Shown here in pieces: positions 7,516-23,442 of a stretch of DNA of 23,442 nt. Made by a program: the position numbers and the translations under genes. Position 1 is the stretch's first letter; each line of letters opens with the position of its first letter. The stretch is taken from positions 1-23,442 of the forward strand of contig JABMQQ010000185.1 in the NCBI GenBank assembly GCA_013202495.1. The letters run 5' to 3'. Under the pieces are notes generated by a model. The model saw only the letters and a program-made list of their open reading frames with translations, made no database searches and had not been told where the DNA came from. The stretch is from Fidelibacterota bacterium (GTDB lineage: Bacteria > Fidelibacterota > UBA8477 > JABMPR01).

Positions 7516-8860
7516 TGTTTTACTTATTGATGATGATATGAGCCTAAGTCGGGTGTTGGGCTACCAACTGGAGCAAAGCGGATTTGATGTAGTTGTCGTG
7601 AATAGTGGCAAAGATGGTCTTGAACAGTTTAAAGAAAAGAGTTTCGATATTGTCGTCACAGATATTCAAATGCCAGATATGTCTGGAATTGAAGTCCTGG
7701 GCGAGATACGTAAAATTGATGTAAATATTGTCATTATTCTCATAACTGCCTATGGGAGTGTTGACAACGCCATCGAGGCTTGCCGTCTGGGGGCAGATGA
7801 TTATCTAACCAAGCCATTTGGCCAAGAGCAGCTGCTATTTGTAATTGAAAAGGCAATGCGTCTCCGGGAGCTTCAGTCGGACAACACAAAGCTCAGACGT
7901 GAATTAAAGGGCAAACATAATTTCAGCAACCTTGTCACGAATAATTCCGAGATGGAAAGTGTATTGGAAATGGCTGGGCAAATAGCAGATAGTGAAACAA
8001 CGACACTAATTCTTGGCGAGAGCGGTACGGGCAAAGAGCTCATAGCTAAAGCTGTTCATTACAATAGTTCTCGTGCCAAGAAACCACTTATCACGGTAAA
8101 TTGTCCTTCAATTCCCGACAATCTACTTGAGAGTGAGCTATTTGGACACGTTCGTGGATCCTTCACCGGAGCTATAAGGGACCGTAAGGGCAAGTTTGAA
8201 ATGGCTAATGGTGGTACAATTTTCCTCGATGAGATTGGAGACTTGCGTGAAACGGTGCAAGCTAAGTTATTGAGAGTTTTACAGGAGCAAGAAATTGAAC
8301 GTCTGGGTGATTCCAAAACTACAAAAGTAAATGTACGAATAATTGCAGCCACTAATAAAGACTTATGGCAACTCTCCCAAACGGGAAAATTTAGAGAGGA
8401 TCTATATTACAGGTTGAGTGTAATCCCTATCACAATTCCTCCACTGCGCGATAGATCCGGGGATGTACCGATACTAATAAATCATTTCCTAAAGAAATAC
8501 TCTAGAAGCAAAAACTTCAAAATAGATAGTGAAGTCTTTGATATTCTCGATCATTATTCATGGCCAGGTAACATCCGGGAACTTGAAAACCTTGTGCAAA
8601 GACTTGTTACCCTGACAAAAGGGGAGCTGATAACATCAAGTGATCTCCCAGGCCACATACGGTCATCAGAAGCTAATCTCAATCCTCTGTCGCTTAAAAT
8701 CCCTGCTGATGGTCTCTCCCTTCACGAAGTGGAAGAAAAACTCATCCGAGAAACACTTCAAAAAGCTAATGGCAACCAATCCAAGGCTGCAAGATTGCTA
8801 AAAATCCCCAGACATGTCCTATTGTATCGTTTGAAGAAATTAGGAATCGTCCACCAATAA
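7508..8860 (+). CDS. Sigma-54-dependent response regulator (NtrC family; REC + AAA+ sigma-54 activator + Fis-type HTH)
   Basis: REC domain: MYSVLLIDDD...DIVVTDIQMPDMSG...KPF. Walker A is GESGTGKE and Walker B is IFLDEIGDL. The sigma-54 contact loop reads VRGSFTGA, a GSFTGA variant of GAFTGA. The C-terminal HTH is QSKAARLLKIPRHVLLYRLKKLGI. The start at 7508 was chosen because it places the ATG overlapping the upstream kinase's TAG (ATGTATAG). Confidence 0.95.
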   Translation: MYSVLLIDDDMSLSRVLGYQLEQSGFDVVVVNSGKDGLEQFKEKSFDIVVTDIQMPDMSGIEVLGEIRKIDVNIVIILITAYGSVDNAIEACRLGADDYLTKPFGQEQLLFVIEKAMRLRELQSDNTKLRRELKGKHNFSNLVTNNSEMESVLEMAGQIADSETTTLILGESGTGKELIAKAVHYNSSRAKKPLITVNCPSIPDNLLESELFGHVRGSFTGAIRDRKGKFEMANGGTIFLDEIGDLRETVQAKLLRVLQEQEIERLGDSKTTKVNVRIIAATNKDLWQLSQTGKFREDLYYRLSVIPITIPPLRDRSGDVPILINHFLKKYSRSKNFKIDSEVFDILDHYSWPGNIRELENLVQRLVTLTKGELITSSDLPGHIRSSEANLNPLSLKIPADGLSLHEVEEKLIRETLQKANGNQSKAARLLKIPRHVLLYRLKKLGIVHQ

Positions 8861-8930: not shown

Positions 8931-9035
8931 ATCTATATCCAATTCTGGGCACCTATTAAGCTAGCTCAATAATTAACTTTAATATACTGTAAATACTAGA
9001 TATAAGCATTTCCAATCCTCGCGATATTTTGACTT

Positions 9036-9051
9036 GGCACGCAAGTTGGAA
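9036..9051 (+). promoter_or_regulatory. Sigma-54 promoter, TGGCACG-caag-TTGGA
   Basis: It matches the TGGCACG-N4-TTGCW consensus except for one base (TTGG in place of TTGC). The identical architecture recurs at 16220. The predicted TSS is near 9061-9063. Confidence 0.6.
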
Positions 9052-9436: not shown

Positions 9437-10708
9437 ATGCAAATCCAAAAATTGTTACTGCTAGTCACTCTAACGAGCCTAAGCTTTGGTCAAGTGACTG
9501 CAATTAAGCAAATAGACCTGCAGGATCTTATTAAGGAAGGTCTTTCTAACAATCCATTTAGACAGGCATACTATGAAGATATTGGCATTGCCGAATCTAA
9601 GGTTTCACAATCAGGAGCCCTGCCTGATCCGATGTTATCGCTCAACTTAATGAATTTACCTTTTGAGAATTTTGGGTTTGATCAAGAGCCTATGTCTGGG
9701 AAGCAAGTTGCATTTAAGCAGGGAATACCCTTTCCGGGAAAACTAGGCCTTAAGGAACAGATTGCAAAAGTAGGGGTTAAGATTTCGAACGACCAATATG
9801 CCGAAGTAAGCAACGGACTCGTAAGAGATATTTCTAAGACCTATTATGATCTATTCTTTGTGGACGAAGCGATAGCCACAATCGACAAAAACCGTCAATT
9901 AGTTTCTGAACTGCTCAAAGTAGCCGAACAAAAATATGCAGTTGGTAAAGGTTTACAGCAAGATGTACTAAAAGCCCAAGTAGAACTGTCACTTATGACA
10001 GAGAGACTCATTTCACTGAATCAAAGCAGAGACCGTATTGAAGCTAACCTAAACGCACTCTTAAATCGACCAATTGACCAATCTTTTGGATCCATACAGA
10101 AACCCCAGATCAAACAGTATTCACTGTCATTTGCTGAGCTTAAAGCAATTGGCGATGAGAATCGACCCCTGCTTAAGCAATGGCAGAATCGTATTGAGAG
10201 AAGTGGGAGAAAAATCGAATTAGCTAAGAAGAATCTTTTACCGGATTTTGCAATAAGCGCGGCGTATACCCAACGTGATATTCTTCAGAGCGGAATGGGT
10301 GGCGCTGACTTTCTTTCTACTGGGATTAGCCTCAATCTCCCGATTTATGCGAAAAGCAAACAAAAGCAAAATATCAACGAGAAACGGATAGAGCAGAAAA
10401 GTTTAGAGGAAAGACGTGAAGGTGTCCAGCAGAAAGTATACCGAGATATAAGTAACGGCTTAACAGAGCTAATCGAAAATACAGAATTGCTGGAGTTGTA
10501 TCGGACGGGAATTATCCCCCAGGCAGCACAGTCATTAGAATCAACGCTTACCGGATACCAAACTGACAAAGTGGATTTCCTGACACTTATCAGTAGTCAA
10601 ATGACACTGTTTAATCTCGAACTTGAATACGCAAAACTAATTAGCAAACATAACAAAAATATAGTTGATCTAGAGTTTTTCATTGGCACGTCTTTGCCTC
10701 TGAATTGA
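9437..10708 (+). CDS. Outer-membrane efflux protein (TolC / OEP family; CusC- or CzcC-like outer-membrane factor)
   Basis: Signal peptide MQIQKLLLLVTLTSLSFGQVTA with no lipobox Cys. It has the two-repeat OEP architecture with coiled-coil segments (LNQSRDRIEANLNALLNRPID, LELYRTGIIPQAAQSLESTLTGYQTDKVDFLTLISSQ). Confidence 0.85.
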   Translation: MQIQKLLLLVTLTSLSFGQVTAIKQIDLQDLIKEGLSNNPFRQAYYEDIGIAESKVSQSGALPDPMLSLNLMNLPFENFGFDQEPMSGKQVAFKQGIPFPGKLGLKEQIAKVGVKISNDQYAEVSNGLVRDISKTYYDLFFVDEAIATIDKNRQLVSELLKVAEQKYAVGKGLQQDVLKAQVELSLMTERLISLNQSRDRIEANLNALLNRPIDQSFGSIQKPQIKQYSLSFAELKAIGDENRPLLKQWQNRIERSGRKIELAKKNLLPDFAISAAYTQRDILQSGMGGADFLSTGISLNLPIYAKSKQKQNINEKRIEQKSLEERREGVQQKVYRDISNGLTELIENTELLELYRTGIIPQAAQSLESTLTGYQTDKVDFLTLISSQMTLFNLELEYAKLISKHNKNIVDLEFFIGTSLPLN

Positions 10709-10735: not shown

Positions 10736-12241
10736 GTGTTTCGGAGAATAAAAATGAGAACAGTAGTAAAAATATTGATAGTTGTACTAAGCATAGGGTT
10801 GGCGGCATTTGTTGTCAGTTGTGGATCAGCTAATTCAGACAGTAAGCATGAGCATACGAAAAATGCAGAGGGTCTATACACCTGTGGAATGCATCCCGAG
10901 GTTATTCTGGAAGGACCAGGCCAATGTCCTATCTGTGGTATGAACCTGACTCCCTTGAAACAGAATTCTGTCTCAACAGCCTCTTCCCAAAAACCAGATA
11001 GTGAGCGTAAAATACTGTACTGGCAAGCTCCCATGAATCCTGAAGAAATATATGATGAGCCCGGCAAGTCGAACATGGGAATGGATTTGGTCCCTGTATA
11101 TGATGATCAAACCAGCTCAGGTAGTCAAGTTTCAATCGATCCAAGTACAGTTCAAAACATGGGAGTTCGTACTGCTACTGTTCAGAGGCGGGACTTTAGC
11201 AGAAATATCCGAGCATTGGGCAAGATCGATTACAATGAAGAAAATATTTATGAGGTTTCCTCCAAGATATCTGGTTGGATCGAAAAACTATATGTGGACT
11301 ATACCGGGAAACCAGTCCGCAAAGGTCAGGCTTTATTGGAGTTATATTCTCCTGATTTGGTCACTACACAGCAAGAGTATCTGCTGGCTTTGAAAAACAG
11401 GGAGTTGATCAGCGAATCTAGCTTTGCGAGCATTCGCGAAGGTGCTGAATCCCTACTCTCATCCACCCGCCAAAGATTAGCCTATTGGGATATTCCTGAA
11501 AAAGAAATCCTACGCCTTGAGGATGGCGGCGTCGTCAGTAAGACCATTACTTTTGAATCACCTGCAGATGGAATTGTGATTCATAAGAACGCTGTTGAGG
11601 GCAAGCATATCAAAGAAGGTAGCTCTCTTTATCGAATAGCTGATTTGTCAACAATCTGGGTATTTGCAAGTCTCTATGACAATGAGGTACCGTGGGTGGA
11701 GGTTGGTCAGACTGCAGAAATGGAACTCTCATATGCTCCGGGAAAGATTCTGAAAGGAAAAGTGGCTTACATTTATCCTTATTTGAATGAAAAATCGCGT
11801 GATGTGAAGGTTCGCTTAGAATTTCCAAATCCAGATATGATGTTAAAACCAGGTATGTATGCGAATGTGAGCATTAAGACTCAATCCATCAAGGATGCAA
11901 TGGTTATTCCTTCTGAATCGGTGATCCGGTCAGGCGAAAGGATACTAACATTTATTGCAAAGGGTGAAGGCCGTTTTGAACCTCGTCCAATCAAAGTTGG
12001 GCAAGAGGGAGATAATGGAGAGGTTCTGGTTCTCGCTGGATTGACTGAGGGCGAGGAGATAGTTACCTCAGCTCAGTTCTTACTTGATAGTGAAAGTCGT
12101 CTACAAGAGGCTATCCAGAAGATGCTAAGTGAGAAATCGGCAGCAAGAACTGCAATGGAGCCAGAAGAGGAAGATATGGAGACAACCTCCATGGAATCCA
12201 TGGAGCAAGACTCTGATTCTGATATGGATCATTCTCACTGA
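10736..12241 (+). CDS. cusB: RND efflux periplasmic adaptor (CusB-like membrane-fusion protein) with an N-terminal CxxC heavy-metal-binding domain (HMBD) and an acidic, Met-rich C-terminal tail
   Basis: GTG start with a GAGGGGAG RBS 6 nt upstream. Lipobox VVSCGS. The HMBD (about 10877-10960) reads YTCGMHPEVILEGPGQCPICGMNLTPL. The HlyD/CusB-like core includes YSPDLV...EYLLA and GMYANVSIKT. The C-terminus is EPEEEDMETTSMESMEQDSDSDMDHSH. Confidence 0.85.
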   Translation: MFRRIKMRTVVKILIVVLSIGLAAFVVSCGSANSDSKHEHTKNAEGLYTCGMHPEVILEGPGQCPICGMNLTPLKQNSVSTASSQKPDSERKILYWQAPMNPEEIYDEPGKSNMGMDLVPVYDDQTSSGSQVSIDPSTVQNMGVRTATVQRRDFSRNIRALGKIDYNEENIYEVSSKISGWIEKLYVDYTGKPVRKGQALLELYSPDLVTTQQEYLLALKNRELISESSFASIREGAESLLSSTRQRLAYWDIPEKEILRLEDGGVVSKTITFESPADGIVIHKNAVEGKHIKEGSSLYRIADLSTIWVFASLYDNEVPWVEVGQTAEMELSYAPGKILKGKVAYIYPYLNEKSRDVKVRLEFPNPDMMLKPGMYANVSIKTQSIKDAMVIPSESVIRSGERILTFIAKGEGRFEPRPIKVGQEGDNGEVLVLAGLTEGEEIVTSAQFLLDSESRLQEAIQKMLSEKSAARTAMEPEEEDMETTSMESMEQDSDSDMDHSH

Positions 12242-12314: not shown

Positions 12315-15300
12315 ATGCTAGAAAAGATTATTGAAGCTTCAGTGAATAACCGATTCCTGGTCATCTTATTTACGGCTCTGATTGCTTTAGGGGGAATCTA
12401 CGCGGTTCTCAATACACCGATTGATGCTATCCCTGACCTCAGCGATGTTCAGGTTATCATTTTTACGGAATTTCCAGGACAAGCACCTCAGGTTGTCGAG
12501 GATCAGGTTACCTATCCACTTACCACAGCCATGTTGGCAGTTCCATATGCAAAAGTAGTCCGGGGATATTCATTCTTTGGTCTCTCATTCGTTTATATCA
12601 TTTTTGAGGATGACACTGATCTTTATTGGGCCCGAAGCAGGGTTCTTGAGTATCTGAATTACGTATCAAGTCGTCTCCCTGAAGGAGTTACACCGACCTT
12701 AGGTCCTGATGCGACTGGAGTAGGTTGGGTATACGAATATGTGCTGGACGGTGGAGATGAATATGATCTTCAACAGCTCAGATCTATTCAAGATTGGTAT
12801 CTCCGTTACCAACTAACTGGTGTGCCCGGTGTGGCAGAAGTGGCCAGTATTGGTGGCTATGTCAAACAGTATCAGGTAGAGATAGATCCCAATAAACTAC
12901 TCGCATATAACATTCCTATTCAAAAAGTGAAAATGGCTATCAAGCGCAGCAATAATGATGTTGGTGGAAAGCTCATTGAGATGGGCGAGACGGAATTCAT
13001 GGTGCGTGGACTGGGATATATCAAAAACAAAGAAGATATTGAGAAAATTGCGCTGGGCGTAGACTCCGAAGGAACACCCATTCTCATTAAACAGATTGCC
13101 AATGTCAATATAGGCCCTGAGTTACGTCGAGGAATAACTGATTGGAATGGTGAAGGAGAGGCCGTCGGAGGTGTAATTGTTATGCGCTCTGGCGAAAATG
13201 CTCTCAAAACTATTGAGCTTGTGAAGGAAAAACTTGAAGAATTGAAGAAAGGCCTTCCGGAGGGTGTGACTATCAAGTCTGCCTACGATCGTTCAGGCCT
13301 AATCAATCGAGCTATCGACAATTTGAGCTTAAAGTTACTTGAAGAGTTATTGGTAGTGGCGATCGTGTGTATTGTTTTCCTGCTCCATTTTCGGAGTGCA
13401 TTTGTAGCACTCTTCACATTACCAATGGGCATACTGGTATCATTTTTCATTATGTATTTCCAGGGTATTAATGCCAACATTATGTCCCTGGGAGGAATCG
13501 CAATAGCCATTGGAGCTATGGTTGACGCTGCTATTGTGATGATTGAGAATGCTCATAAGCACCTCGAAAGAGACAAAGGTAAAAAAGACCACTGGCAAAT
13601 CATTATCGATTCTTCCAAAGAAGTAGGACCGGCTTTATTCTACTCATTGTTGATTATCACAGTATCCTTTCTACCAGTATTCACACTAGAAGCACAGGAA
13701 GGACGCTTGTTCAAACCCCTCGCATTTACAAAAACGTATGCCATGGGTGCCTCAGCCTTCCTGGCGATTACCATTGTTCCCATTCTTATGGGTTATTTCG
13801 TTCGTGGTAAGATTCTCCCTGAAAACAAGAATCCAATAAGTCGCTTTCTTATGAAGATATATAGACCCATTATTCATGCAGTGTTGCGTTTTAAATGGGC
13901 AACCATTGTTATTGCCATAGTAATCATGGCAATAACCATAATTCCCCTTGGAAAAATTGGATCAGAATTCATGCCTCCACTCAACGAGGGTGATCTTCTA
14001 TACATGCCAACAACTGATCCTGGTATCAGTATTACTAAGGCAAAGGAACTTTTACAACAGACCGATAGGATCATTAAGAGTTTCCCTGAAGTTCACCACG
14101 TTTTTGGTAAGATTGGTCGTGCTGAATCAGCAACAGATCCTGCTCCTTTATCTATGATAGAAACAACAATAATGTTGAATCCTACAGATACCTGGCGTGA
14201 TGGAATGACCATTGAAAAGCTCATCCTTGAGCTGGACGCAGCTATCCAGTTTCCTGGATTAACCAATGCCTGGACCATGCCCATAAAAACGAGAATCGAT
14301 ATGCTTGCTACCGGTATCAAAACCCCAGTAGGCATCAAGCTAATGGGACCAGATCTGGAGGTTCTTTCAGACTTGGGACAAGAAATAGCCGGTGTGATCA
14401 AGGATGTTGAGGGGACCTTAAGTGTATTCCCCGACAAAACGATAGGTGGAAACTTCCTGGACTTTGACATCAAGCGTGACGAAATCGCCCGTTATGGTCT
14501 AACCGTCGGTGATGTACAAGATGTAATCATGTCCGCTATAGGTGGAATGAACGTGTCCTATACAGTTGAGGGGTTGGAGCGTTATCCAATTAATGTCAGA
14601 TATAGTCGTGAATTACGTGATAATATTTCAGCATTGAAAAGAGTTTTGGTTCCAACACCTTCGGGAGCTCAGATTCCAATGGAATATTTAGCAGAAATCA
14701 AGATCGTCAAGGGTCCCCCCGTCATAAAAAGTGAAAACTCACGCCAGACAGCCTGGCTATATGTTGACTTGAGAGGAATTGATGTTGGTACTTATGTAGA
14801 AAACGCAAAAAAGGTTGTGGAAGCCAATATATCATTTCCAGAGGGTTATAGTCTCGTTTGGTCTGGTCAATATGAATATATGGAACGTGCGGCAAAGAAA
14901 TTAAAGATCGTTATCCCTATAACTCTGCTAATCATCTTTTTGTTGCTATATTTCAATTTCAAGAACTTTACTGAAAGTGTGATTGTGATGTCCTCCCTAC
15001 CATTTGCTTTGGTAGGTGGTATCTGGTTCATGTATTTTCTGGATTACAACTTTAGTGTGGCTGTAGGTGTGGGATTTATCGCACTGGCTGGTCTAGCTGC
15101 AGAAACAGGTGTCGTCATGCTGGTCTACCTTGATAATGTGTTTGCTGAAAAAGTGAACAGTGGAAAAATGAGAAGCCTGACAGATCTTTATGATACTGTG
15201 ATCGTTGGAGCTGTTGAACGCGTTAGACCCAAGCTGATGACGGTAACAACCACCATGTTTGGACTTGTACCGATCCTTTGGGGAACTGAGGCTGGATCCC

Positions 15301-15569
15301 AAACTATGAAGCGTATTGCCGCGCCCATGGTTGGCGGAATGGTCTCCTCAACTATACTAACTCTCATAGTTATTCCTGCAATTTATTATCTCTGGAAATC
15401 GCGAGAAGTGAAAAGCATTATCAGCAAACTACAATTAGATGGTTCAACTGAGCCTGTTGAACTCATTTCCATTGATGCACACTCTGAAGAGACACCAATT
15501 GAAATCGAGGCAAAGCCAAATGAGAATCTCGATGATAATAATTCTACCAAGCTGGGACCAAACGAATAA
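12315..15569 (+). CDS. cusA: Heavy-metal-efflux RND pump, CusA-like (Cu(I)/Ag(I) type)
   Basis: 1084 aa with 12 transmembrane helices and two large periplasmic loops. The TM4 region AIAIGAMVDAAIVMIENAHK...GPALFYSLLIITVSFLPVFTLEAQEGRLFKPLAFTKTYAM is near-identical to the CusA signature as I remember it, and it lacks the CzcA-type acidic TM4. A roughly 60-aa acidic C-terminal extension is present. Confidence 0.95.
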   Translation: MLEKIIEASVNNRFLVILFTALIALGGIYAVLNTPIDAIPDLSDVQVIIFTEFPGQAPQVVEDQVTYPLTTAMLAVPYAKVVRGYSFFGLSFVYIIFEDDTDLYWARSRVLEYLNYVSSRLPEGVTPTLGPDATGVGWVYEYVLDGGDEYDLQQLRSIQDWYLRYQLTGVPGVAEVASIGGYVKQYQVEIDPNKLLAYNIPIQKVKMAIKRSNNDVGGKLIEMGETEFMVRGLGYIKNKEDIEKIALGVDSEGTPILIKQIANVNIGPELRRGITDWNGEGEAVGGVIVMRSGENALKTIELVKEKLEELKKGLPEGVTIKSAYDRSGLINRAIDNLSLKLLEELLVVAIVCIVFLLHFRSAFVALFTLPMGILVSFFIMYFQGINANIMSLGGIAIAIGAMVDAAIVMIENAHKHLERDKGKKDHWQIIIDSSKEVGPALFYSLLIITVSFLPVFTLEAQEGRLFKPLAFTKTYAMGASAFLAITIVPILMGYFVRGKILPENKNPISRFLMKIYRPIIHAVLRFKWATIVIAIVIMAITIIPLGKIGSEFMPPLNEGDLLYMPTTDPGISITKAKELLQQTDRIIKSFPEVHHVFGKIGRAESATDPAPLSMIETTIMLNPTDTWRDGMTIEKLILELDAAIQFPGLTNAWTMPIKTRIDMLATGIKTPVGIKLMGPDLEVLSDLGQEIAGVIKDVEGTLSVFPDKTIGGNFLDFDIKRDEIARYGLTVGDVQDVIMSAIGGMNVSYTVEGLERYPINVRYSRELRDNISALKRVLVPTPSGAQIPMEYLAEIKIVKGPPVIKSENSRQTAWLYVDLRGIDVGTYVENAKKVVEANISFPEGYSLVWSGQYEYMERAAKKLKIVIPITLLIIFLLLYFNFKNFTESVIVMSSLPFALVGGIWFMYFLDYNFSVAVGVGFIALAGLAAETGVVMLVYLDNVFAEKVNSGKMRSLTDLYDTVIVGAVERVRPKLMTVTTTMFGLVPILWGTEAGSQTMKRIAAPMVGGMVSSTILTLIVIPAIYYLWKSREVKSIISKLQLDGSTEPVELISIDAHSEETPIEIEAKPNENLDDNNSTKLGPNE

Positions 15570-15599: not shown

Positions 15600-15941
15600 A
15601 TGAAAGAGGTTAAAGCATTTATCCGGGGTGACAAGGCAGACGAAGTTATTGCAGCCTTGGAAGAAGTAGGAGTTATCAACTTGACTGTAATCAATGTGAT
15701 GGGTATAGGCCGGAGTCTTGCGCCTTCGAAAGGTGCAAAATACTCTGTTGATCTGACTCAGAAATATTCAACTATAGCCAAAATAGAGATTGTATGCAGA
15801 GCATCTGATACTGCGAAGATAGTGGATGTATTGCGGCAGTCTGCTTACACAGGCATGCAAGGCGATGGGATGATCTATGTTGTCCCAGTTGAAACAGCTG
15901 TCAAAATTAGAACTGGAGCATATGGGGGGGATGCGTTGTAA
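15600..15941 (+). CDS. PII-like (GlnB-fold) signal-transduction protein. It resembles the 'PII new group' linked to heavy-metal RND loci.
   Basis: It aligns by eye to GlnB: MKEVKAFIRGDK..VIAAL.EVGV..LTV..V.G.GR...KIEIV...D.AKIVDVL..SAYTG..GDGMIYV.PVE.AVKIRTG. The T-loop is shorter and lacks the Tyr51 context. The gene sits immediately after cusA, and a terminator follows it. Confidence 0.8.
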   Translation: MKEVKAFIRGDKADEVIAALEEVGVINLTVINVMGIGRSLAPSKGAKYSVDLTQKYSTIAKIEIVCRASDTAKIVDVLRQSAYTGMQGDGMIYVVPVETAVKIRTGAYGGDAL

Positions 15942-15981
15942 CCCCCCGACAACAATTCTTCCCCGCTTCAGCTTCCATATA

Positions 15982-16036
15982 AGATGGGTGGGCTTTGATC
16001 CTCAATAGGATTAGGGCTCATCCATCTTTTCGTTTT
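15982..16036 (+). terminator. Strong intrinsic terminator with a 21-bp stem: AGAUGGGUGGGCUUUGAUCCU-CAAU-AGGAUUAGGGCUCAUCCAUCU, followed by UUUCGUUUU
   Basis: All 21 positions pair when six G-U wobbles are allowed. It ends the efflux operon 40 bp after the PII-like stop. Confidence 0.7.
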
Positions 16037-16219: not shown

Positions 16220-16235
16220 TGGCACGTGATTTGGA
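16220..16235 (+). promoter_or_regulatory. Sigma-54 promoter, TGGCACG-tgat-TTGGA
   Basis: Its architecture is identical to the element at 9036 (TGGCACG-N4-TTGGA). The predicted TSS is near 16246. Confidence 0.6.
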
Positions 16236-16433
16236 TTAAGTAGTCATGTGAAATTAAAATTTATACAGAACCAGCCCTTCAACATGACACAGCCGAGAGG
16301 GGTAAAAATTGAGGGCAGATTGCAACGTGGAGCTCAGGCGAGTTCAATGTCTCAGGTATACGGACACAGCACAGCCGATCTGCCCTATGAGAACAAGGCT
16401 TATAACGAGCCAATAAATAAAAGGAGTAGTAAG

Positions 16434-17006
16434 ATGACGAGAATGCAGTTTCTCACCAAAACGATGATGATGTCTTTGATGGTCTTTATCGCCGTTTCAA
16501 ATGTCAACGCCCAACATATGGGGGATAATCATCAAGATCAGGATCAAATGAGCGGGGATCAGACCACCCAGCATATGCATGAAAACATGCAGAATATGCA
16601 GCAAATGCAGCAGTCAAATATGATGACCATGGACGGTCAGAGCATGATGATGTCTATGGAAGAAATGATGGAGCATATGAGTCAATTGATGAACCATAGC
16701 GAAGCCATGCTTTCCAGCCTTGAAGACAGCGGCGATCACGGGTTAATGTCCATGTTCAGGGGTGATGATTCCGAGACTCATATGATGGAAATGACTGAAG
16801 ACATGACTGAGATGATGACAGGGATGAATGGATTAATGGAAAATATGCAGTCCATGATGGGCGATCAGGACATGATGAGCGAGGAAGGCATGCAGATGCA
16901 AATGGATAATATGCAATCGACTCTCAACGAAATGGTGGCATCAATGGATCAGATGATGGACAATATGCATAATATTCAAAAGCTTACTCCAAAAGTTAAG
17001 AAATAA
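16434..17006 (+). CDS. Secreted, extremely Met-rich acidic low-complexity protein, a putative periplasmic Cu(I)/Ag(I)-binding 'methionine sponge'
   Basis: AAGGAG RBS 7 nt upstream of the ATG at 16434. The Sec signal peptide is MTRMQFLTKTMMMSLMVFIAVSNVNA|QH. The mature part is packed with MxM, MxxM and HxxM motifs (MQNMQQMQQSNMMTMDGQSMMMSMEEMMEHM...MMEMTEDMTEMMTGMNGLMENMQSMM). The track's GTG start at 16248 would be leaderless relative to the sigma-54 TSS and adds 62 residues before the signal peptide, so it is unlikely. Confidence 0.7.
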   Translation: MTRMQFLTKTMMMSLMVFIAVSNVNAQHMGDNHQDQDQMSGDQTTQHMHENMQNMQQMQQSNMMTMDGQSMMMSMEEMMEHMSQLMNHSEAMLSSLEDSGDHGLMSMFRGDDSETHMMEMTEDMTEMMTGMNGLMENMQSMMGDQDMMSEEGMQMQMDNMQSTLNEMVASMDQMMDNMHNIQKLTPKVKK

Positions 17007-17025: not shown

Positions 17026-17832
17026 ATGCGCACCAAGAATCAAATTGTCAAAAAGCGTCTCCAAACGACGTGGCTGTTGCTAGCCTGGGTTGCAGGTTCT
17101 GCCCAGGCCGGCCAGTCATGGTCTCTTGCTACTTCAATGTCCTACAATCAAGGCACTTATGTGTATGAAAATACCATTGAAAATTATTACTTAAATTTAG
17201 GAGTAAGGTACAAACAGCCTCTGTGGTCAATCGCAGTAACTCTCCCAATCTTAGCTCAACAGGATAATCTTGAATTGGCTAGCTTTCCGGAGTCAGGCGT
17301 TGCGGATAGTAACGGCGTTCTGACTAACACCCACTGGGGTAACGTAAAAATGGGTGTAGGTGATTTATACATCTTTGGTCAACGCACAGTATGGCAGAAT
17401 TTTAAATCCAAAAGCTCGCTGTCTGCAACCTTTCAATTCAAAGTGCCCCTTGGATTTTCAAGTCAAACTTTTAGCTCACAGAAAAAGGATTACGGTGCAG
17501 GAATTCTATTTAAACAGTATCGGGGAGATTATTCATTTTTCACCGATTTGGGGTATCTGGTTTTAGGTAATCCTGAATGGGGAATCTACAAAAACCCAAT
17601 TAGCTATGGTGCCGGGATTGGCAGGACTTTCCTTCGTAAAACACTTTCCATGTCCATGTACTACCGTGCCTATACAGAAATAATAGACGGGATCTCTCCT
17701 CCTCAGCAGATTTCATTTGGCCTTTATGGCCGACTAAACCGCCAGTCTAACATATCAATAAATTGGACTCAGGGATTGAGTGAGAGCAGCCCGGATAGAG
17801 GCATATCTATGGGGCTAAGTAGGAAATTATAG
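17026..17832 (+). CDS. Putative outer-membrane beta-barrel protein
   Basis: Signal peptide ...LLLAWVAGSAQA. The mature part shows alternating hydrophobic/polar beta-strand periodicity with many Tyr, Gly and Trp residues. The family was not recognised. Confidence 0.55.
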   Translation: MRTKNQIVKKRLQTTWLLLAWVAGSAQAGQSWSLATSMSYNQGTYVYENTIENYYLNLGVRYKQPLWSIAVTLPILAQQDNLELASFPESGVADSNGVLTNTHWGNVKMGVGDLYIFGQRTVWQNFKSKSSLSATFQFKVPLGFSSQTFSSQKKDYGAGILFKQYRGDYSFFTDLGYLVLGNPEWGIYKNPISYGAGIGRTFLRKTLSMSMYYRAYTEIIDGISPPQQISFGLYGRLNRQSNISINWTQGLSESSPDRGISMGLSRKL

Positions 17833-17897: not shown

Positions 17898-18290
17898 ATG
17901 AAATCAATGATCGCAATTATAACACTTAGCACAGGAGTCCTCCTTGGTTGCCAGGATAAGGCCACAGAGCAGGTTAAACAAAGTTCAAGTATGGAACGGA
18001 TTCAAAAATCCGATGTGAGTCATGAGGATCACGATCATGCTAGTATGGAGAAGGCTGTTAGCCCTGAATACTACACATGTCCCATGGAGAGCCACAAGCA
18101 TATTAACAGTCAAGAGGCTGGAAGTTGTCCCGAATGTGGTATGACGTTAGTACCAGTAGTCGAAACGACCGCTGAAGATGCTGAATTTTATGGGTGTCCA
18201 ATGCCTGAACATAGTCATGTCAGAGCAGAAGAAGCAGGGTCATGCCCAGAGTGTGGAATGAACTTAAAACCGATGAAACTTGGCAGCTAA
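17898..18290 (+). CDS. Lipoprotein with two tandem CxxC heavy-metal-binding domains (HMBD), a putative periplasmic Cu(I)/Ag(I) chaperone
   Basis: Lipobox VLLGCQD. The His-rich linker is SHEDHDHASMEK. HMBD1 is YYTCPMESHKHINSQEAGSCPECGMTLVPV and HMBD2 is FYGCPMPEHSHVRAEEAGSCPECGMNLKPM. Both share the motif found in the CusB-like adaptor and the CopA N-terminus. Confidence 0.75.
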   Translation: MKSMIAIITLSTGVLLGCQDKATEQVKQSSSMERIQKSDVSHEDHDHASMEKAVSPEYYTCPMESHKHINSQEAGSCPECGMTLVPVVETTAEDAEFYGCPMPEHSHVRAEEAGSCPECGMNLKPMKLGS

Positions 18291-18345: not shown

Positions 18346-18762
18346 ATGAATAAAAGAACGCTTATGGTAGCAGCAATAATTCTGGGTGCATGCTTGCTAT
18401 TTTTTCAACCCATTTTTGCCAATGCGCTACCCGAAGATTGGGTAGCTCCCGCCAGTGCGGATTCTCTCCAAAGTCCGATAAAATCAAATTCTGATTCTTG
18501 GATGCCGGGGGAAGCCATATACAAAACAGCCTGTGGCGTATGTCATGGTGTAAGTGGGTTCGGTGACGGCATTGCCGCTGTAGCTCTAAATCCGAGACCT
18601 GCTGATTTAACATCCAAAGTGGTGCAAGATCAAAGTGATGGAGCCCTTTTTTGGAAGCTCACAACAGGTAAAACCCCCATGGCCAGTTATAAGGATGTGT
18701 ACACCGATCAGCAACGTTGGGAACTGGTTGAGTACATCCGCAACCTAGAGAAGAAGGATTAG
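18346..18762 (+). CDS. Monoheme class-I c-type cytochrome (periplasmic)
   Basis: Signal peptide followed by a single CGVCHG (CXXCH). A downstream ...DGALFWKLTTGKTPMASY... stretch supplies the Met sixth-ligand context typical of c552/c6-like cytochromes. It ends ...RWELVEYIRNL. Confidence 0.8.
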   Translation: MNKRTLMVAAIILGACLLFFQPIFANALPEDWVAPASADSLQSPIKSNSDSWMPGEAIYKTACGVCHGVSGFGDGIAAVALNPRPADLTSKVVQDQSDGALFWKLTTGKTPMASYKDVYTDQQRWELVEYIRNLEKKD

Positions 18763-18764
18763 AT

Positions 18765-19943
18765 ATGAAATATATTACAACACTATTGATTACGATTTGT
18801 GTATCTGTGTATGGTCAGGACTATTCAGATTTGCTCAAAAAAATTGAAAGCTCGAAACCTGGTGATAGCCAATTTCTGCTTCGGGGGTATGCTCACTCAG
18901 GATATGAAAAAAGGGGTGAAGAATCCAGTTTTGTGGGTGGAAGTTTTAATCCAATATTCCTATGGCGTCAATCTGATAAACTACTTTTTGAGGCGGAACT
19001 GGAATTAGAGCTCGAGCATGGAGAAACCGCTCTTGCTTTAGAATATGCAAACATGGCTTATGAGCTTCGGGACAACTTAACTGTCCGCGTTGGCATGTTT
19101 TTGCTTCCCTTTGGGACCTTCAGTGAACGTCTCCATCCTCGTTGGATAAATCGTCTACCTTCTAGCCCTCTAGGATTTGGCCATGATCCTATTGGTCCTA
19201 TGCGTGACATGGGAATCGAACTTAGAGGAAATACAAAACTCGGAAGCAGAAGCCTTAGCTATTCTCTTTATTCAACCAACGGACCCTCTTTAAATGACGG
19301 GGAAGATCACGATTTGAGTGAAGACGAGGCAGGGATGCTCAATTATCTAAACTTTGAGGACAATAATTCAAATAAAGCGATCGGTGGAAGGCTGGGAATA
19401 TTTCCACTTGCATCACCGGCTCTGGAGTTAGGCTTTTCGGGTCAGATCGCAGAAGTAGGTAATCACGAAACTGAATATGAAAACACTGCTGCCAATCTAT
19501 ATGCACTCGATATGTCATATGTTAATAATATCATTTTCCTAAAGGGTGTTGTAGATCTAAAGGGACAGTTGAATCAAATCAATGTTGATGATGAAAGTTA
19601 TTTCTCGGACGAGGATTCCTCCTCCTACTCATTTTTAAACCAAAGTCAAGCTTCCTATCTGCAGGCATCTTTTAGACCCGCATACGTGAGGAATTCATTT
19701 GTGAAGAATCTAGAAATAGTAGGAAGATACTCCCAAATTGAAACTCCTGAGGGAGCGCTTTGGGAATCAAATCAGTCACAATATGTAGTTGGTCTCAATT
19801 ATTGGTTGGATTGGCGAACTGTTCTCAAAATTGCCTACCAGGTAAATGAGAGCTCCGCAGCAGGTGGCCATGTTGAAGAAGACGAGCACGGGGATGAAGG
19901 TGGGGATAACGCAATACTCATTCACTGGGCATTTGGATTCTAA
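18765..19943 (+). CDS. Porin-like outer-membrane beta-barrel protein
   Basis: Signal peptide MKYITTLLITICVSVYGQ. The C-terminus is aromatic (ILIHWAFGF, ending in Phe), which is typical of outer-membrane proteins. An acidic His-containing loop (HVEEDEHGDEGGD) sits near the C-terminus. The gene starts 3 bp after the cytochrome stop. Confidence 0.65.
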   Translation: MKYITTLLITICVSVYGQDYSDLLKKIESSKPGDSQFLLRGYAHSGYEKRGEESSFVGGSFNPIFLWRQSDKLLFEAELELELEHGETALALEYANMAYELRDNLTVRVGMFLLPFGTFSERLHPRWINRLPSSPLGFGHDPIGPMRDMGIELRGNTKLGSRSLSYSLYSTNGPSLNDGEDHDLSEDEAGMLNYLNFEDNNSNKAIGGRLGIFPLASPALELGFSGQIAEVGNHETEYENTAANLYALDMSYVNNIIFLKGVVDLKGQLNQINVDDESYFSDEDSSSYSFLNQSQASYLQASFRPAYVRNSFVKNLEIVGRYSQIETPEGALWESNQSQYVVGLNYWLDWRTVLKIAYQVNESSAAGGHVEEDEHGDEGGDNAILIHWAFGF

Positions 19944-19972
19944 GTATACTTCACAATTAGAAGGAAATTAAC

Positions 19973-20245
19973 ATGATAAAATCAATAAAAACGACATTAG
20001 GTCTAGCCACAATAATAATATTGTCAACAATGTTCATAACCGCATGTAGTTCACAGAATCCTCCTCTTGAGAAATCTGGTGCACAACTATGGGGTGAAAA
20101 TTGTGTTCGCTGTCACAACGCACCATCTCCATCAGCTTTTAGTGATAACCAATGGGAAACCGTGGCCATGCATATGAAAATCAGGGCAAACCTGAATTCA
20201 TCCGAAACTGCAGAAATTGTTGAATTCCTGCAAATGGCAAATTGA
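19973..20245 (+). CDS. Small monoheme c-type cytochrome lipoprotein
   Basis: Lipobox FITACSS and a single CVRCHN (CXXCH) motif. At 90 aa it resembles small soluble cytochrome c family members. Confidence 0.65.
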   Translation: MIKSIKTTLGLATIIILSTMFITACSSQNPPLEKSGAQLWGENCVRCHNAPSPSAFSDNQWETVAMHMKIRANLNSSETAEIVEFLQMAN

Positions 20246-20269
20246 CAAGAATAGAAAGAGAGAAATATA

Positions 20270-20659
20270 GTGAGTGTTTACAGTATGACCTCTGTTTCAG
20301 AGCGTAGCTTTGACGAAACAGTTGATATGGTAACAGAGGAATTGAAAATAGCAGGATTTGGTGTGCTCACGGACATAGATGTCAAAAGCACGCTGAACGA
20401 AAAGTTGGGTGTAGATATACCACGATATCGGATTCTTGGAGCCTGCAATCCACAGTATGCTTATGTGGCTTTGAAAACTGAAGATCATGCTGGTCTCTTT
20501 CTGCCGTGCAATGTAGTTGTACACGAGCTGGGAAAGAATGAGGTTGAGGTTACGGTCCTCGATCCCGTTGCTGCAATGCAAGCGGTATCAAATCCAAGGC
20601 TAAAGGCTGTAGCTTGGCAAGTTCGAGAAAAGCTTGAAGCTGTAATAGAGCGTATCTGA
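20270..20659 (+). CDS. DUF302-domain protein
   Basis: Characteristic DUF302 layout: SFDETVDMVTEELKIAGFGVLTDIDV...RILGACNPQYAYVAL...LPCNVVVHE. Position 20270 is a GTG start. The alternative ATG is at 20285. Confidence 0.8.
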   Translation: MSVYSMTSVSERSFDETVDMVTEELKIAGFGVLTDIDVKSTLNEKLGVDIPRYRILGACNPQYAYVALKTEDHAGLFLPCNVVVHELGKNEVEVTVLDPVAAMQAVSNPRLKAVAWQVREKLEAVIERI

Positions 20660-20688
20660 GTTTCGATGTCGCTCGAAAGGGTGTCACT

Positions 20689-20892
20689 ATGGAAGTCGAG
20701 TGGATGTTTGGGTTGTTCTTTCTCTCAATGGCAGTTGGAATAGCTATTCGAGCTATGACTCAACCCTCAAAAAGGGAAGAGGGTAACCTGGATAGTGAAG
20801 CAATAGAAATTGCAGAGAAACGCTACGCAAAAGGTGAAATAAGTGCGCAGGAATTTGAGAGAATGAAATCAAATTTAAAGAGCACACAGTGA
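20689..20892 (+). CDS. Small membrane protein with a C-terminal SHOCT domain
   Basis: One N-terminal transmembrane helix (MFGLFFLSMAVGIAIRAM) followed by a SHOCT-like AEKRYAKGEISAQEFERMKSNL. Confidence 0.6.
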   Translation: MEVEWMFGLFFLSMAVGIAIRAMTQPSKREEGNLDSEAIEIAEKRYAKGEISAQEFERMKSNLKSTQ

Positions 20893-20940
20893 GATGATAC
20901 TTAACCAACATTATGAAAATAATAGAAGGCATATAAAAAA

Positions 20941-22011
20941 ATGAATCTTTTACCCGAATGGGCTCCGAATATCCACCCCATGCTCATTCACTTTCCAATT
21001 GTACTCCTCCTCCTGGCACCTCTGTTTGACGTAGGAGCATTAGTATTTAAGAAATCACCCTGGTTACTACCAGCGGCGAATTTCTTGTACTTTTTAGCAG
21101 GATTCAGCGTGGTACTTGTATTCATCTCTGGCAAGCTTGCGGCACAGAACATCGACATTCCAACCGATGCCTATGTAACCATTTCAAAGCACGCGAACTG
21201 GGCTCTTTACACACTCATTCTTGCGGGCATAAATGGAGCAATTCGAGTGTTCTTAATGATAAATATTAAGGGGGAATCCTTTTCTAGATGGTACATGCTA
21301 ATACCCGGACTGCTTGGAATTGTATTTCTCATCAATACTGCAGATCAAGGTGCAAAATTAGTATTCGCACATGGTGTAGGTGTATCCGCAAAAATGAACA
21401 GTAACCATCACAAAATGGAAGTTCAGATTGAGTCTGAGGCAGCAGTACACACGCATGAACACGCAGATCCAGATGTCGAGTCACTGCAGTGGTCGGCCGC
21501 AACCAGCACACTTGAGAGCTTTAGCCATAGATTTGAATGGTTAATTACGCAACCAGAAGAAATGGGAATATCCAAGGGCAACAATGAAAATGGAACAGCC
21601 TTTAACATTCATCTAGAAGATCAGGAAACTCTAATCCTTTTTCCTGAATTTGTTTCGAATCTTGAGCTTCAAACCCAACTCAACTTCGATAAGTTTGAAG
21701 GTATTGTTAGATTGGTGCACCACTTCTCAAGCCTCGATCAATATGATTTCTTAGAAGCAAGCTCGACAGAAGTACTACTTGGAAGAATCGTGGGGGGTAA
21801 AAAGAAGATCTTCGATTCTGCAAAGACCAACCTCTCAAAGGCAGTGACTTTAAAAGCCGTCGGCACTGAAGGGCATTTTAGAGGATATGCAGATAACGAA
21901 CTCCTGACCCATGGTCATGGACCAGATTTCCCTGCGGGCAAACTTGGCTTATATTTAAAGGGGAGCGGATTAATTAGTTTAAATGAATTGAGTGGGACTG
22001 AAATCGAATGA
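20941..22011 (+). CDS. DUF2231-like four-transmembrane membrane protein fused to a roughly 200-aa C-terminal soluble domain of unknown function
   Basis: N-terminal HPMLIHFPIVLLLLAPLFD is the hallmark HFPIAL-type motif of DUF2231. Four hydrophobic helices follow. The C-terminal region has a His cluster (HTHEHADPD) and no recognisable motif. Confidence 0.6.
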   Translation: MNLLPEWAPNIHPMLIHFPIVLLLLAPLFDVGALVFKKSPWLLPAANFLYFLAGFSVVLVFISGKLAAQNIDIPTDAYVTISKHANWALYTLILAGINGAIRVFLMINIKGESFSRWYMLIPGLLGIVFLINTADQGAKLVFAHGVGVSAKMNSNHHKMEVQIESEAAVHTHEHADPDVESLQWSAATSTLESFSHRFEWLITQPEEMGISKGNNENGTAFNIHLEDQETLILFPEFVSNLELQTQLNFDKFEGIVRLVHHFSSLDQYDFLEASSTEVLLGRIVGGKKKIFDSAKTNLSKAVTLKAVGTEGHFRGYADNELLTHGHGPDFPAGKLGLYLKGSGLISLNELSGTEIE

Positions 22012-22340
22012 AGATGCTCACGTTTCTTCATTTGATCAGATCGTGGACTCGGCCCGGGTTAGAATCGATCAATAAGCTTGGATTTCCGTTAGTTCTGGCT
22101 TCCCACTCAATGCTTTACGATAACCCATCTAGCAATCAAGATGGTATGAGAAATGATGTGAGCGGGATAAAGATCGATAAAGGGCCGCGCATGGACCAAT
22201 ATCGATTTGGAAAGGGGATGCCTATCAATCCAAAACCGATCCATATGCTGGGGTGTCAACATGCTCCAGCTCCCCGCTCATATTTCTTGTTAAATATGTT
22301 TAAAAGTGAATTAAAGGGAGAGAATAATAATGCCAATTGA
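22008..22340 (+). CDS. Hypothetical 110-aa protein (uncertain)
   Basis: It overlaps the upstream stop by 4 bp (ATGA) and the downstream CopA start by 11 bp. This translational-coupling geometry is the only support. There are no motifs and no transmembrane segment. Confidence 0.25.
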
Positions 22341-23442
22341 TCCTGTGTGCGGTATGACTGTAAATGAACCGAGTTCTTACACATCTGATTATAGAGGAAC
22401 AAGATTTCATTTTTGCAGTGCTCATTGCGTAGAACGATTTGAGCAGAAACCAGAGAAATACCCTGAGAGTCATGATGCTCAAATAAATGATGAGGCCCTC
22501 TATACTTGCCCAATGCACCCTGAGATCAAAGAGTCAGGTCCAGGTGCTTGCCCGAAGTGTGGCATGTCCCTTGAACCACTTATGCCAGCTGTCAAGGCAG
22601 ATGCCCCTGAATACACCTGCCCAATGCACCCCGAAATCATTCAGAATCAGCCCGGATCGTGCCCCAAGTGTGGAATGGCACTCGAGCCAATGATCGCCAC
22701 AGAAGATGAGGAAGATCAGGAATTGACTGATATGAGCAGAAGGTTTTGGGTGAGCTTAATCCTGTCTTTGCCCCTTGTCTTTATAACTATGGGCGAACTG
22801 TTTTTTCAGTCGTCCCTGTTTCATTGGAGTTGGCGACCCTATCTTGAATTAACTTTGGCTACACCAGTTGTTCTCTGGGCAGGTGCAACATTCTTTCAAC
22901 GTGGCTGGGCTTCAGTCGTTAATCGAAGTTTAAATATGTTCACTCTGATCGCTCTTGGGACTGGTGTAGCATATGTTTATAGTGTGGTTGCAGTAATATT
23001 TCCACAAATATTTCCCGCTGCATTTAAATCGCCTGAAGGTGTAGTTGCTGTTTATTTCGAAGCCGCAGCGGTCATTACAATGCTGGTCCTTTTAGGGCAG
23101 GTTCTCGAACTGAGGGCTAGGCATCAGACAGGGAGCGCAATTAGAGCTTTACTGGGCCTGGCTCCGAAAATAGCAATGATCATTCAGGAAGATGGAACCG
23201 CTAAGGAAATCCCTTTAAGTCATGTAAAAGTAAACGATCTCCTGCGTGTTAGACCAGGGGATAAAATTCCTGTAGATGGAATTCTCATTGAGGGATCCAG
23301 TACGGTCGATGAGTCAATGATCACCGGAGAGCCAATGGCAGTCAAAAATGGAGAGGGCGATTCTGTTACGGCAGCAACTATTAATCAAACTGGTGCATTT
23401 TCCATGAGAGCGGAAAGAGTACGTGCAGACACTCTATTGTCC
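22330..23442 (+). CDS. copA: Copper-translocating P1B-type ATPase (CopA-like), partial because the C-terminus lies beyond the window. The N-terminus carries a TRASH/YHS-like domain plus two HMBD modules.
   Basis: AAGGGAG RBS 8 nt upstream of the ATG at 22330. Translation runs to the window edge with no stop (371 aa). The TRASH/YHS-like region is DPVCGMTV...[17 protein letters not shown]1 is [27 protein letters not shown] and HMBD2 is [27 protein letters not shown]. Transmembrane helices and the actuator-domain motif [16 protein letters not shown] (TGE) follow. This gene is absent from the ORF track because there is no in-window stop. Confidence 0.95.

Follow-up and report, generated by a model that had tools for sequence, protein, structure and literature searches.

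We analysed a 23,442-nucleotide stretch of DNA (the window; contig JABMQQ010000185.1) from a Fidelibacterota bacterium. The window is a copper/silver-defence island, carried on the plus strand by a marine Marinimicrobia-like bacterium, and close relatives of its proteins carry the label Candidatus Marinimicrobia. Positions 18346-22011 of the island hold a block of genes for two c-type cytochromes, a porin, a DUF302 protein, a SHOCT protein and a DUF2231 membrane protein. This block is made up of three separable modules, namely a cytochrome-porin-cytochrome triad, a DUF302-SHOCT pair and a DUF2231 domain joined to a jelly roll, which move independently between genomes and do not constitute one haem-based system. 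The best explanation overall, in which we place about even confidence, is that the block forms the distal two-thirds of a single sigma54-driven operon for envelope copper/silver defence. This operon would run from a Met-rich protein through a small outer-membrane protein, an HMBD lipoprotein, the six block genes and a leader to copA, and would lie downstream of a two-component system and cusCBA-P-II.

The triad is defined by the adjacency of its genes. We compared 80 genome loci around DUF2231 relatives (35 with the jelly roll and 45 with DUF2231 only) and 83 loci around porin relatives, 30 of them long (≥17 kb), and searched the window proteins against six-frame open reading frames (ORFs) of the fetched loci. 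A homologue of the larger cytochrome, cytc138, lay immediately upstream of the porin gene in 71 of 71 porin loci with at least 500 bp of room on that side, and a homologue of the smaller one, cytc90, lay immediately downstream in 71 of 71 loci with at least 450 bp of room. The cytc138-porin junction is 2 bp in the window, and triad junctions elsewhere range from overlaps to about 50 bp. Loci of this kind are found in Marinimicrobia, Calditrichota, Ignavibacteria, Chlorobi-like bins, Flavobacteriaceae, Cytophagales and Lewinellaceae, many of them from ocean metagenomes, TARA included, and at about 50% identity the porin family divides into 754 or more protein clusters. The adjacency of the three genes is thus obligate in the loci compared, and we consider it highly probable that they form one functional unit.

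The two cytochromes differ in kind. The first triad gene (18346-18762) encodes cytc138, a periplasmic class I monohaem cytochrome c of 138 residues with the motif CGVCH. It begins with a hydrophobic segment at residues 6-24, an export signal, and matches both PF13442 (Cytochrome_CBB3; E 1.8e-11, 44.6 bits against a cut-off of 27) and PF00034 (Cytochrom_C; E 3.5e-10, 41.5 bits against 21.3). Its CxxCHG motif is kept in 85 of 88 homologues and the segment that carries the Met ligand, G-x-x-P-M, is at least 95% conserved. Among solved structures it lies closest to a Kuenenia cytochrome, to ActE (a subunit of alternative complex III) and to c552, and the protein resembles ordinary respiratory carriers. 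The third triad gene (19973-20245) encodes cytc90, a lipoprotein monohaem cytochrome c of 90 residues (CVRCH, lipobox FITAC) that belongs to a divergent small family. It stays below the Pfam cut-off (PF13442, 20.6 bits against 27) and matches the TorC C-terminal family with 31 bits against a cut-off of 478; its CxRCH motif is nevertheless kept in 83 of 84 homologues, and NCBI names its relatives 'cytochrome c'. The mature part of cytc90 has about 65 residues. All 100 homologues are 79-109 residues long, and a simple pattern finds a lipobox-like motif ahead of the haem motif in 64 of 83. An invariant HM pair could supply the sixth haem ligand.

Between them lies the porin gene (18765-19943), whose product is identical to a protein listed at NCBI under locus tag HQ556_12315. 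The protein scores 17 bits against PF07396, short of the 20.9-bit cut-off, although some homologues have a precomputed PF07396 match; its best structural match, at 13% identity, is the arginine-ladder porin OprP (PDB 2o4v). The model is a barrel of 16 strands of the OprP type, with a long loop, L3, at residues 114-146 between strands 5 and 6. General porins have their constriction loop at the matching position. This loop holds the best-conserved motif of the family, R-L-H-P-x-W-I-N-R-L-P-x-x-P-L-G-x-G-H-D, within which H124, W127, I128, N129 and H140 are invariant. Strand 3 (residues 73-84) reads F-E-A-E-L-E-L-E-L-E, with E76, E78 and E80 invariant and E82 and E84 also present, and because the alternating residues are hydrophobic the glutamates must line the lumen. 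Two further loops, L4 (172-204) and L8 (364-382), are acidic in character, with L8 rich in His as well. No basic (Arg/Lys) ladder of the sort that would give anion or phosphate selectivity was found in the porin. An acidic ladder and a His-bearing loop standing where OprP has its arginine ladder suggest a cation channel, and the label 'phosphate-selective porin' given by annotators is probably wrong, since the ladder is acidic and not basic.

A first-pass annotation of the block had made six domain calls, all of which agree with our Pfam matches, haem motifs and folds. It had also placed the block between a copper chaperone and CopA, and the flanking genes are indeed those of a lipoprotein with two HMBD domains (17898-18290) and of a CopA with a YHS and two HMBD domains (from 22330). 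Of the seven closely packed, same-strand genes that it described, the strand holds but the number is six; the gaps, given as 3-50 bp, measure 2, 29, 24, 29 and 48 bp. A further 55 bp separate the HMBD gene from the block, and 318 bp separate the DUF2231 gene from copA if a 110-residue ORF at 22008-22340 is not counted. One could see here a chance mosaic of hitch-hiking genes with over-interpreted cytochrome and porin calls, given that the porin and the small cytochrome fall under their Pfam cut-offs and that module content varies among relatives, as in loci L174 and L175. We regard this as extremely improbable: gene order is kept at 47-80% protein identity, the triad genes adjoin in every locus on each side, the structure models are confident and the functional residues are invariant. 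The arrangement is far beyond chance, and the same block order recurs in relatives with DUF2231 proteins only 47% identical.

The second module consists of two proteins of the cytoplasmic side. The DUF302 protein (20270-20659) matches PF03625 (E 6.5e-24, 84 bits against 23) and TT1751 (1j3m; E 2.5e-20), has neither a signal peptide nor a hydrophobic segment, and is cytoplasmic. The SHOCT protein (20689-20892; PF09851, E 2.7e-8, 33.7 bits against 27) has one N-terminal transmembrane (TM) helix, a hydrophobic segment at residues 2-24, and the basic residues that come after it indicate that the SHOCT domain faces the cytoplasm. With no signal peptide on the one and a cytoplasm-facing domain on the other, neither can belong to a periplasmic chain. 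Both recur in metal islands, in variable positions, and they would be cytoplasm-facing accessory proteins of such islands.

The last gene of the block (20941-22011) encodes a DUF2231 four-helix membrane domain, a His-rich linker and a ConA-like jelly roll. PF09990 (DUF2231) matches residues 10-149 (E 2.3e-14, 54.1 bits against 26.4) and leaves a C-terminal extension of about 170 residues; the earlier description of a membrane protein with a His-containing soluble domain is borne out by this match and by the His cluster of the jelly roll. In the structure model (pLDDT 87.7, pTM 0.83) the membrane domain spans residues 8-144 and a disordered His-rich linker residues 151-178. The DUF2231 motif HPxxxHFPI is common to the 80 genome loci. 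H12, H17 and H84 are invariant, the invariant His lying on TM1 and TM3, and D69 is nearly so; in the jelly roll H312, H324 and H326 are invariant and H260 and H261 nearly invariant. The loops TM1-TM2 and TM3-TM4 contain basic residues, which imply an N-out topology; this would place H12, H17, H84, D69 and the whole jelly roll in the periplasm. When the jelly roll by itself was searched against the full library, only 306 clusters were returned, mostly of the same DUF2231 fusion architecture. Stand-alone lipoprotein forms (P0294, P0300, P0328) carry the domain after a stretch of 40-60 residues rich in His, Asp and Glu. Short DUF2231 proteins of methanotrophs and others (L053, L059, L077, L083, L087 and L088; around 10001-10600) have long C-terminal tails rich in His, such as HEHGEAHVHEHAETHAHEQ; the neighbours of the short methanotroph genes are housekeeping genes and are uninformative. 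The invariant His residues, the His-rich linker and tails and the His/Asp/Glu-rich stretches of the stand-alone forms suggest that metal is bound on the periplasmic surface of the inner membrane. H17 and H84 may also hold a haem b between them.

Both the triad and the DUF2231+jelly-roll protein are linked to copper and metal-efflux genes. Within 10 kb of the DUF2231+jelly-roll genes, 31 of 35 loci have a copper or heavy-metal-efflux (HME) gene, with CopA-like genes in 17, multicopper oxidases (MCOs) in 17 and HME-RND systems in 14; the corresponding figures are 17, 5, 11 and 6 for the 45 loci with DUF2231 only and 23, 5, 12 and 17 for the 30 long porin-centred loci, where the jackhmmer classes 'MCO' and 'CusA' behind such counts may take in other cupredoxin or RND proteins. 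The long porin loci further carry SHOCT genes (20/30) and a type II NADH dehydrogenase, NDH-2 (17/30). The conserved linkage to copper genes on which the first-pass annotation had staked its proposal is therefore present, in 31 of 35 loci for the one module and 23 of 30 for the other, and it is very likely that both belong to metal or copper defence.

Linkage to metal genes leaves room for the triad to take no part in copper chemistry, and to be instead a stress or metal-island cargo of the Fibrobacteres-Chlorobi-Bacteroidetes (FCB) group, a metal-tolerant back-up route that travels with efflux genes. Spare respiratory cytochromes with a dedicated porin, or Fe(II)/Mn(II) handling, would be examples. 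The NDH-2 genes just mentioned fit such a role, as do the Usp, GAPDH-like and DeoC proteins and the Na+/H+ antiporter that triad islands also carry, all of which look like replacements for metal-sensitive functions; the assembly of c-type cytochromes, in the periplasm, is a known target of copper (PMC4600104). CopA-like genes, moreover, are near the triad in just 5 of 30 long loci, and the best NCBIfam match of cytc138, a weak one (39 bits against a cut-off of 280), is cytochrome 579 of iron oxidisers. On the other side, cytochrome genes that are obligately joined to, and often overlap with, the gene for one specialised porin argue for a joint function at the outer membrane. In that porin the Glu ladder is invariant and the eyelet bears His; copper or HME genes accompany 23 of 30 long loci, and in the window lineage (the window, L003 and L174) the triad sits between the HMBD chaperone gene and copA. 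We consider the cargo explanation unlikely, if deserving of serious attention.

The first-pass annotation had further proposed that the cytochromes may be paired with the DUF2231 protein. Cytochromes and DUF2231 protein would then be one membrane-anchored electron chain for the oxidation of Cu(I), standing in for a CueO-type oxidase that is missing. The window, L003 and L174 have these genes side by side and probably in a shared transcript, a haem b could be ligated by the invariant DUF2231 His on TM1 and TM3, and L174 and L175 have no MCO within 10 kb. The pairing breaks down, however, in the wider comparison. DUF2231 is present in 3 of the 30 long porin loci and missing from 27, the triad is present in 3 of the 35 DUF2231+jelly-roll loci and missing from 32, and L175, a close relative, has the order HMBD-DUF302-SHOCT-DUF2231-copA with no triad. 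The constant partner of the cytochromes is thus the porin, which they adjoin in 71 of 71 loci on each side, and not DUF2231. The His-rich tails and linkers likewise favour metal binding over haem.

The idea of a haem-based alternative to CueO rested on an absence that the window cannot show. No MCO gene is present in the window, as had been stated, but the window stops 1.1 kb into copA, and the statement does not extend to the genome. In the syntenic relative L003/L004 a 119-residue gene and then a 595-residue MCO come after copA, in L011 (a Caldithrix bin) MCO genes flank the DUF2231 gene, and MCOs share 12 of 30 long triad loci and 17 of 35 DUF2231+jelly-roll loci. At the level of the 30 long loci there is no sign of mutual exclusion between triad and MCO, and this sharing makes the triad an addition rather than a substitute. 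Taken together, these observations render a single cytochrome-DUF2231 chain in place of CueO improbable, and the modular reading of the block is retained.

Several known systems resemble the triad in part. With OprP/OprO (PDB 2o4v; PF07396) its porin has the fold in common, but the arginine ladder named in the title of the PDB entry is replaced by a Glu ladder, and this ladder, with the acidic and His-rich loops, leads us to expect selectivity for cations rather than phosphate. Unlike OprP/OprO, the triad porin invariably has a cytochrome c gene on either side. Cyc2 of iron oxidisers (PMC8406198; bioRxiv 10.1101/228056), which combines a haem c with a small outer-membrane barrel, is alike in architecture. 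The logic would be the same, in that a metal cation is taken into the pore for oxidation and the electrons pass to periplasmic cytochromes. Cyc2 is, however, one fused polypeptide, whereas the triad consists of separate genes in all loci, has two cytochromes of which one is a lipoprotein, and stands in a context of metal resistance and not lithotrophy. By this analogy the triad would be a minimal, split, two-haem porin-cytochrome machine that oxidises Cu(I) or reduces Cu(II) at the outer membrane, an idea we find rather doubtful. The parts list of MtrCAB (PDB 6r2q) is also alike, its cytochromes, one periplasmic and one a lipoprotein, being encoded next to a porin; Mtr, Pio and Omb conduits, though, have a multihaem cytochrome in a barrel of at least 20 strands, whereas the triad is monohaem with 16 strands and falls outside that class. 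In its way of working the triad would come closest to Cyc2 or to these conduits. CueO/PcoA and the CopI-type cupredoxins (CopI: PMC4600104) are like the triad in proposed role, dealing with periplasmic copper downstream of CopA, and occur in the same islands. R. gelatinosus CopJ has been described with a CxxC motif and not as a cytochrome. Between the triad and CueO, PcoA or CopI there is no homology, and the cofactor is haem in place of copper centres.

In CopC-CopD and YcnJ a beta-sandwich that binds metal in the periplasm is joined to a polytopic membrane part containing conserved His, and CopD has eight helices. The DUF2231+jelly-roll protein resembles them in layout and not in ancestry: we found no sequence or Pfam relationship, DUF2231 has four helices against the eight of CopD, and the soluble part is a ConA-like jelly roll as opposed to a cupredoxin-like domain. 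From ConA-like lectin/glucanase modules (CBM66, 4b1m; YesU, 1oq1; DUF1080, 3hbk) the jelly roll differs by its His cluster (HH, H-F-R-G-Y, H-G-H), by the His-rich tether ahead of it, by its occurrence as a DUF2231 fusion or stand-alone lipoprotein, and by a context of copper and not carbohydrate genes.

The evidence for joint transcription comes from the DNA between the genes. A terminator-like hairpin after the P-II gene (15981-16028, plus strand; a 20-bp stem and then a T-run) ends the cusCBA-P-II unit, and no other plus-strand terminator-like site was found between 15500 and 22400. A sigma54-type -24/-12-like promoter, TGGCACGTGATTTGGA (16220-16235, plus strand), precedes the Met-rich gene. 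It is one of two single-mismatch matches to the sigma54 consensus in the window (pattern TGGCACG-N4-TTGGA), the other lying before cusC at 9035-9050, and it is matched at the same position in L003 (5263-5278) and L174 (3001-3016). A scan for sigma70-type promoters did not rise above chance (19 sites against 16.4 expected). The terminator-free stretch behind a conserved sigma54-like site is suggestive of one unit, from the Met-rich through the DUF2231 gene, under the island's own sensor system. A similar sigma54-like site stands before SHOCT-P-II-outer-membrane protein-DUF2231 genes in the Calditrichia locus L017 (7864-7879).

From these elements a mechanism can be proposed. The porin would serve as a channel for cations (copper), at which two docked haems would change the oxidation state of copper on its passage through the outer membrane or periplasm, exchanging electrons with the respiratory chain through the ActE/c552-like cytochrome. 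Should a complex form, the haems would sit at the mouths of the channel, since a 16-strand barrel cannot hold a cytochrome. Copper could either be oxidised to Cu(II), as a means of detoxification, or be reduced to Cu(I), in order to supply the Cu(I)-specific HMBD, Met-rich and Cus machinery; reduction of Cu(II) is as compatible with the data as oxidation of Cu(I). The DUF2231 protein may, at the membrane surface, capture copper from the periplasm, which would probably be Cu(II). The ligands of the island would serve both states, the Met-rich protein, the Cys/His HMBD proteins and Cus for Cu(I) and the His-rich, acidic jelly roll and porin for Cu(II), and a haem pair at a cation channel is a plausible means of interconverting Cu(I) and Cu(II), coupled to the respiratory chain. 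The potential of the Cu(II)/Cu(I) couple is strongly ligand-dependent and spans the range of class I cytochromes. We hold the action of the haems on copper tentatively, at less than even confidence, and think it rather unlikely that they are specifically an O2-independent Cu(I) oxidase.

Besides the breadth of the jackhmmer classes, several observations weigh against this interpretation. The neighbours of the triad are more often general heavy-metal efflux genes than CopA, and a metal other than copper could therefore be the substrate. None of the 83 porin loci contains a cytochrome-porin fusion and no ORF matches both families, so that Rosetta-stone evidence of a physical complex is lacking; more widely, the 175 loci hold no fusions among triad genes or between triad genes and DUF2231. 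A 12-kDa cytochrome cannot fit inside a 16-strand barrel. Of 16 consensus positions, 15 agree in the sigma54-like sites at 9035 and 16220, which have TTGG for the canonical TTGC at -12. The jelly-roll His cluster might bind Zn or Ni instead, or have a structural role. Finally, the literature searched holds no publication on the function of the triad or DUF2231, and at most incidental mentions of DUF302 or SHOCT with copper or of a cytochrome and porin in Bacteroidetes copper islands.

Upstream of the block, the proposed unit opens with a gene for a Met-rich periplasmic protein (16248-17006, plus strand), a likely Cu(I)/Ag(I) binder without a Pfam family that is syntenic in L003, L174, L175, L011 and L034. 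Its ORF begins only 13 nt past the sigma54-like site; a likely-looking signal peptide, MTRMQFLTKTMMMSLMVFIAVSNVNA, starts around codon 63, which puts the probable true start some 190 nt further downstream. The next gene (17026-17832, plus strand) encodes a 268-residue outer-membrane-like protein with a signal peptide and no Pfam or PDB match. In L011, L017, L018 and L034 (Calditrichia or Ignavibacteriota) it lies directly upstream of the DUF2231+jelly-roll gene, and this adjacency hints that the two are an older pair, which the window lineage would have split by insertion of the HMBD gene, the triad and DUF302-SHOCT. The HMBD lipoprotein that follows (PF19335, E 8e-22, two matched stretches; lipobox LLGC) is the presumed periplasmic copper chaperone.

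Downstream, positions 22012-22329 form a conserved leader of about 320 nt on the plus strand, which shares long blocks of DNA with L003 (11066-11384) where the neighbouring proteins are 47-80% identical (DUF2231, 47%). Two automatic pipelines call here the 110-residue ORF at 22008-22340, a would-be seventh gene, which we reject. By manual count, the first 105 nt of the leader contain 13 substitutions, at codon positions 1, 2 and 3 in the numbers 4, 6 and 3, and the lack of a third-position excess, the similarity in DNA blocks and the absence of the element from L174 and L175, where it was not found, led us to judge the ORF non-coding. No Rfam family matches the leader at the gathering threshold (a chance-level match has E 0.6). 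Its folding z is -1.6, from two sequences, too few to prove structure, and an 8-bp long-range stem is predicted between 22159-22166 and 22274-22281.

The rest of the island lies further out, all on the plus strand: two histidine kinases, its sensor genes (4256-6145 and 6349-7515), a sigma54-dependent response regulator with a Sigma54_activat domain (Pfam; 7472-8860), a cusC-like gene (9437-10708), cusB with an HMBD domain (10736-12241), cusA (12315-15569) and the P-II gene (15600-15941). Upstream of the kinases, 2479-3864 encodes a third haem protein, a secreted protein of 461 residues with Big_2 and EB_dh (ethylbenzene-dehydrogenase-type haem-binding) domains and the motif CASLCH. The NDH-2 gene recurs between the P-II and Met-rich genes of relatives (L003, 3678-5021; L174, 1385-2728; L175, 5417-6646) and is missing from the window. 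At the other end is the 5' part of copA (22330-23442), whose YHS, two HMBD and E1-E2 ATPase domains are matched by Pfam and which continues past the window end; full-length orthologues in L003, L174 and L175 have 756-800 residues. The window DNA is the same as that of the metagenome contigs L001 (from JGI sample 3300032737) and L002 up to about 23348. From about 23349 to 23442, inside copA, L001 (12409-12969) and L002 part from it and enter an IS transposase (HTH_Tnp_1), where both contigs stop, so that copA is cut after about 365 codons in those populations and intact in the window as far as 23442.

For the control of periplasmic copper redox state in Gram-negative bacteria without, or beside, O2-dependent MCOs, above all at low oxygen, the analysis isolates two widespread and unstudied candidates: the cytochrome-porin-cytochrome unit, and the His-cluster jelly roll on DUF2231, which lies by copper genes in about 90% of loci. 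It also corrects a likely mis-annotation, in that the ladder of a 'phosphate-selective porin' is acidic and not basic. The presence of the triad in cultivable Flavobacteriia and Cytophagia (Tenacibaculum, Mariniflexile, Pontimicrobium and Reichenbachiella) makes direct testing feasible. If the proposed role is true, the triad would be an O2-independent complement to multicopper oxidases in FCB-group bacteria, including the Marinimicrobia of oxygen-minimum zones.

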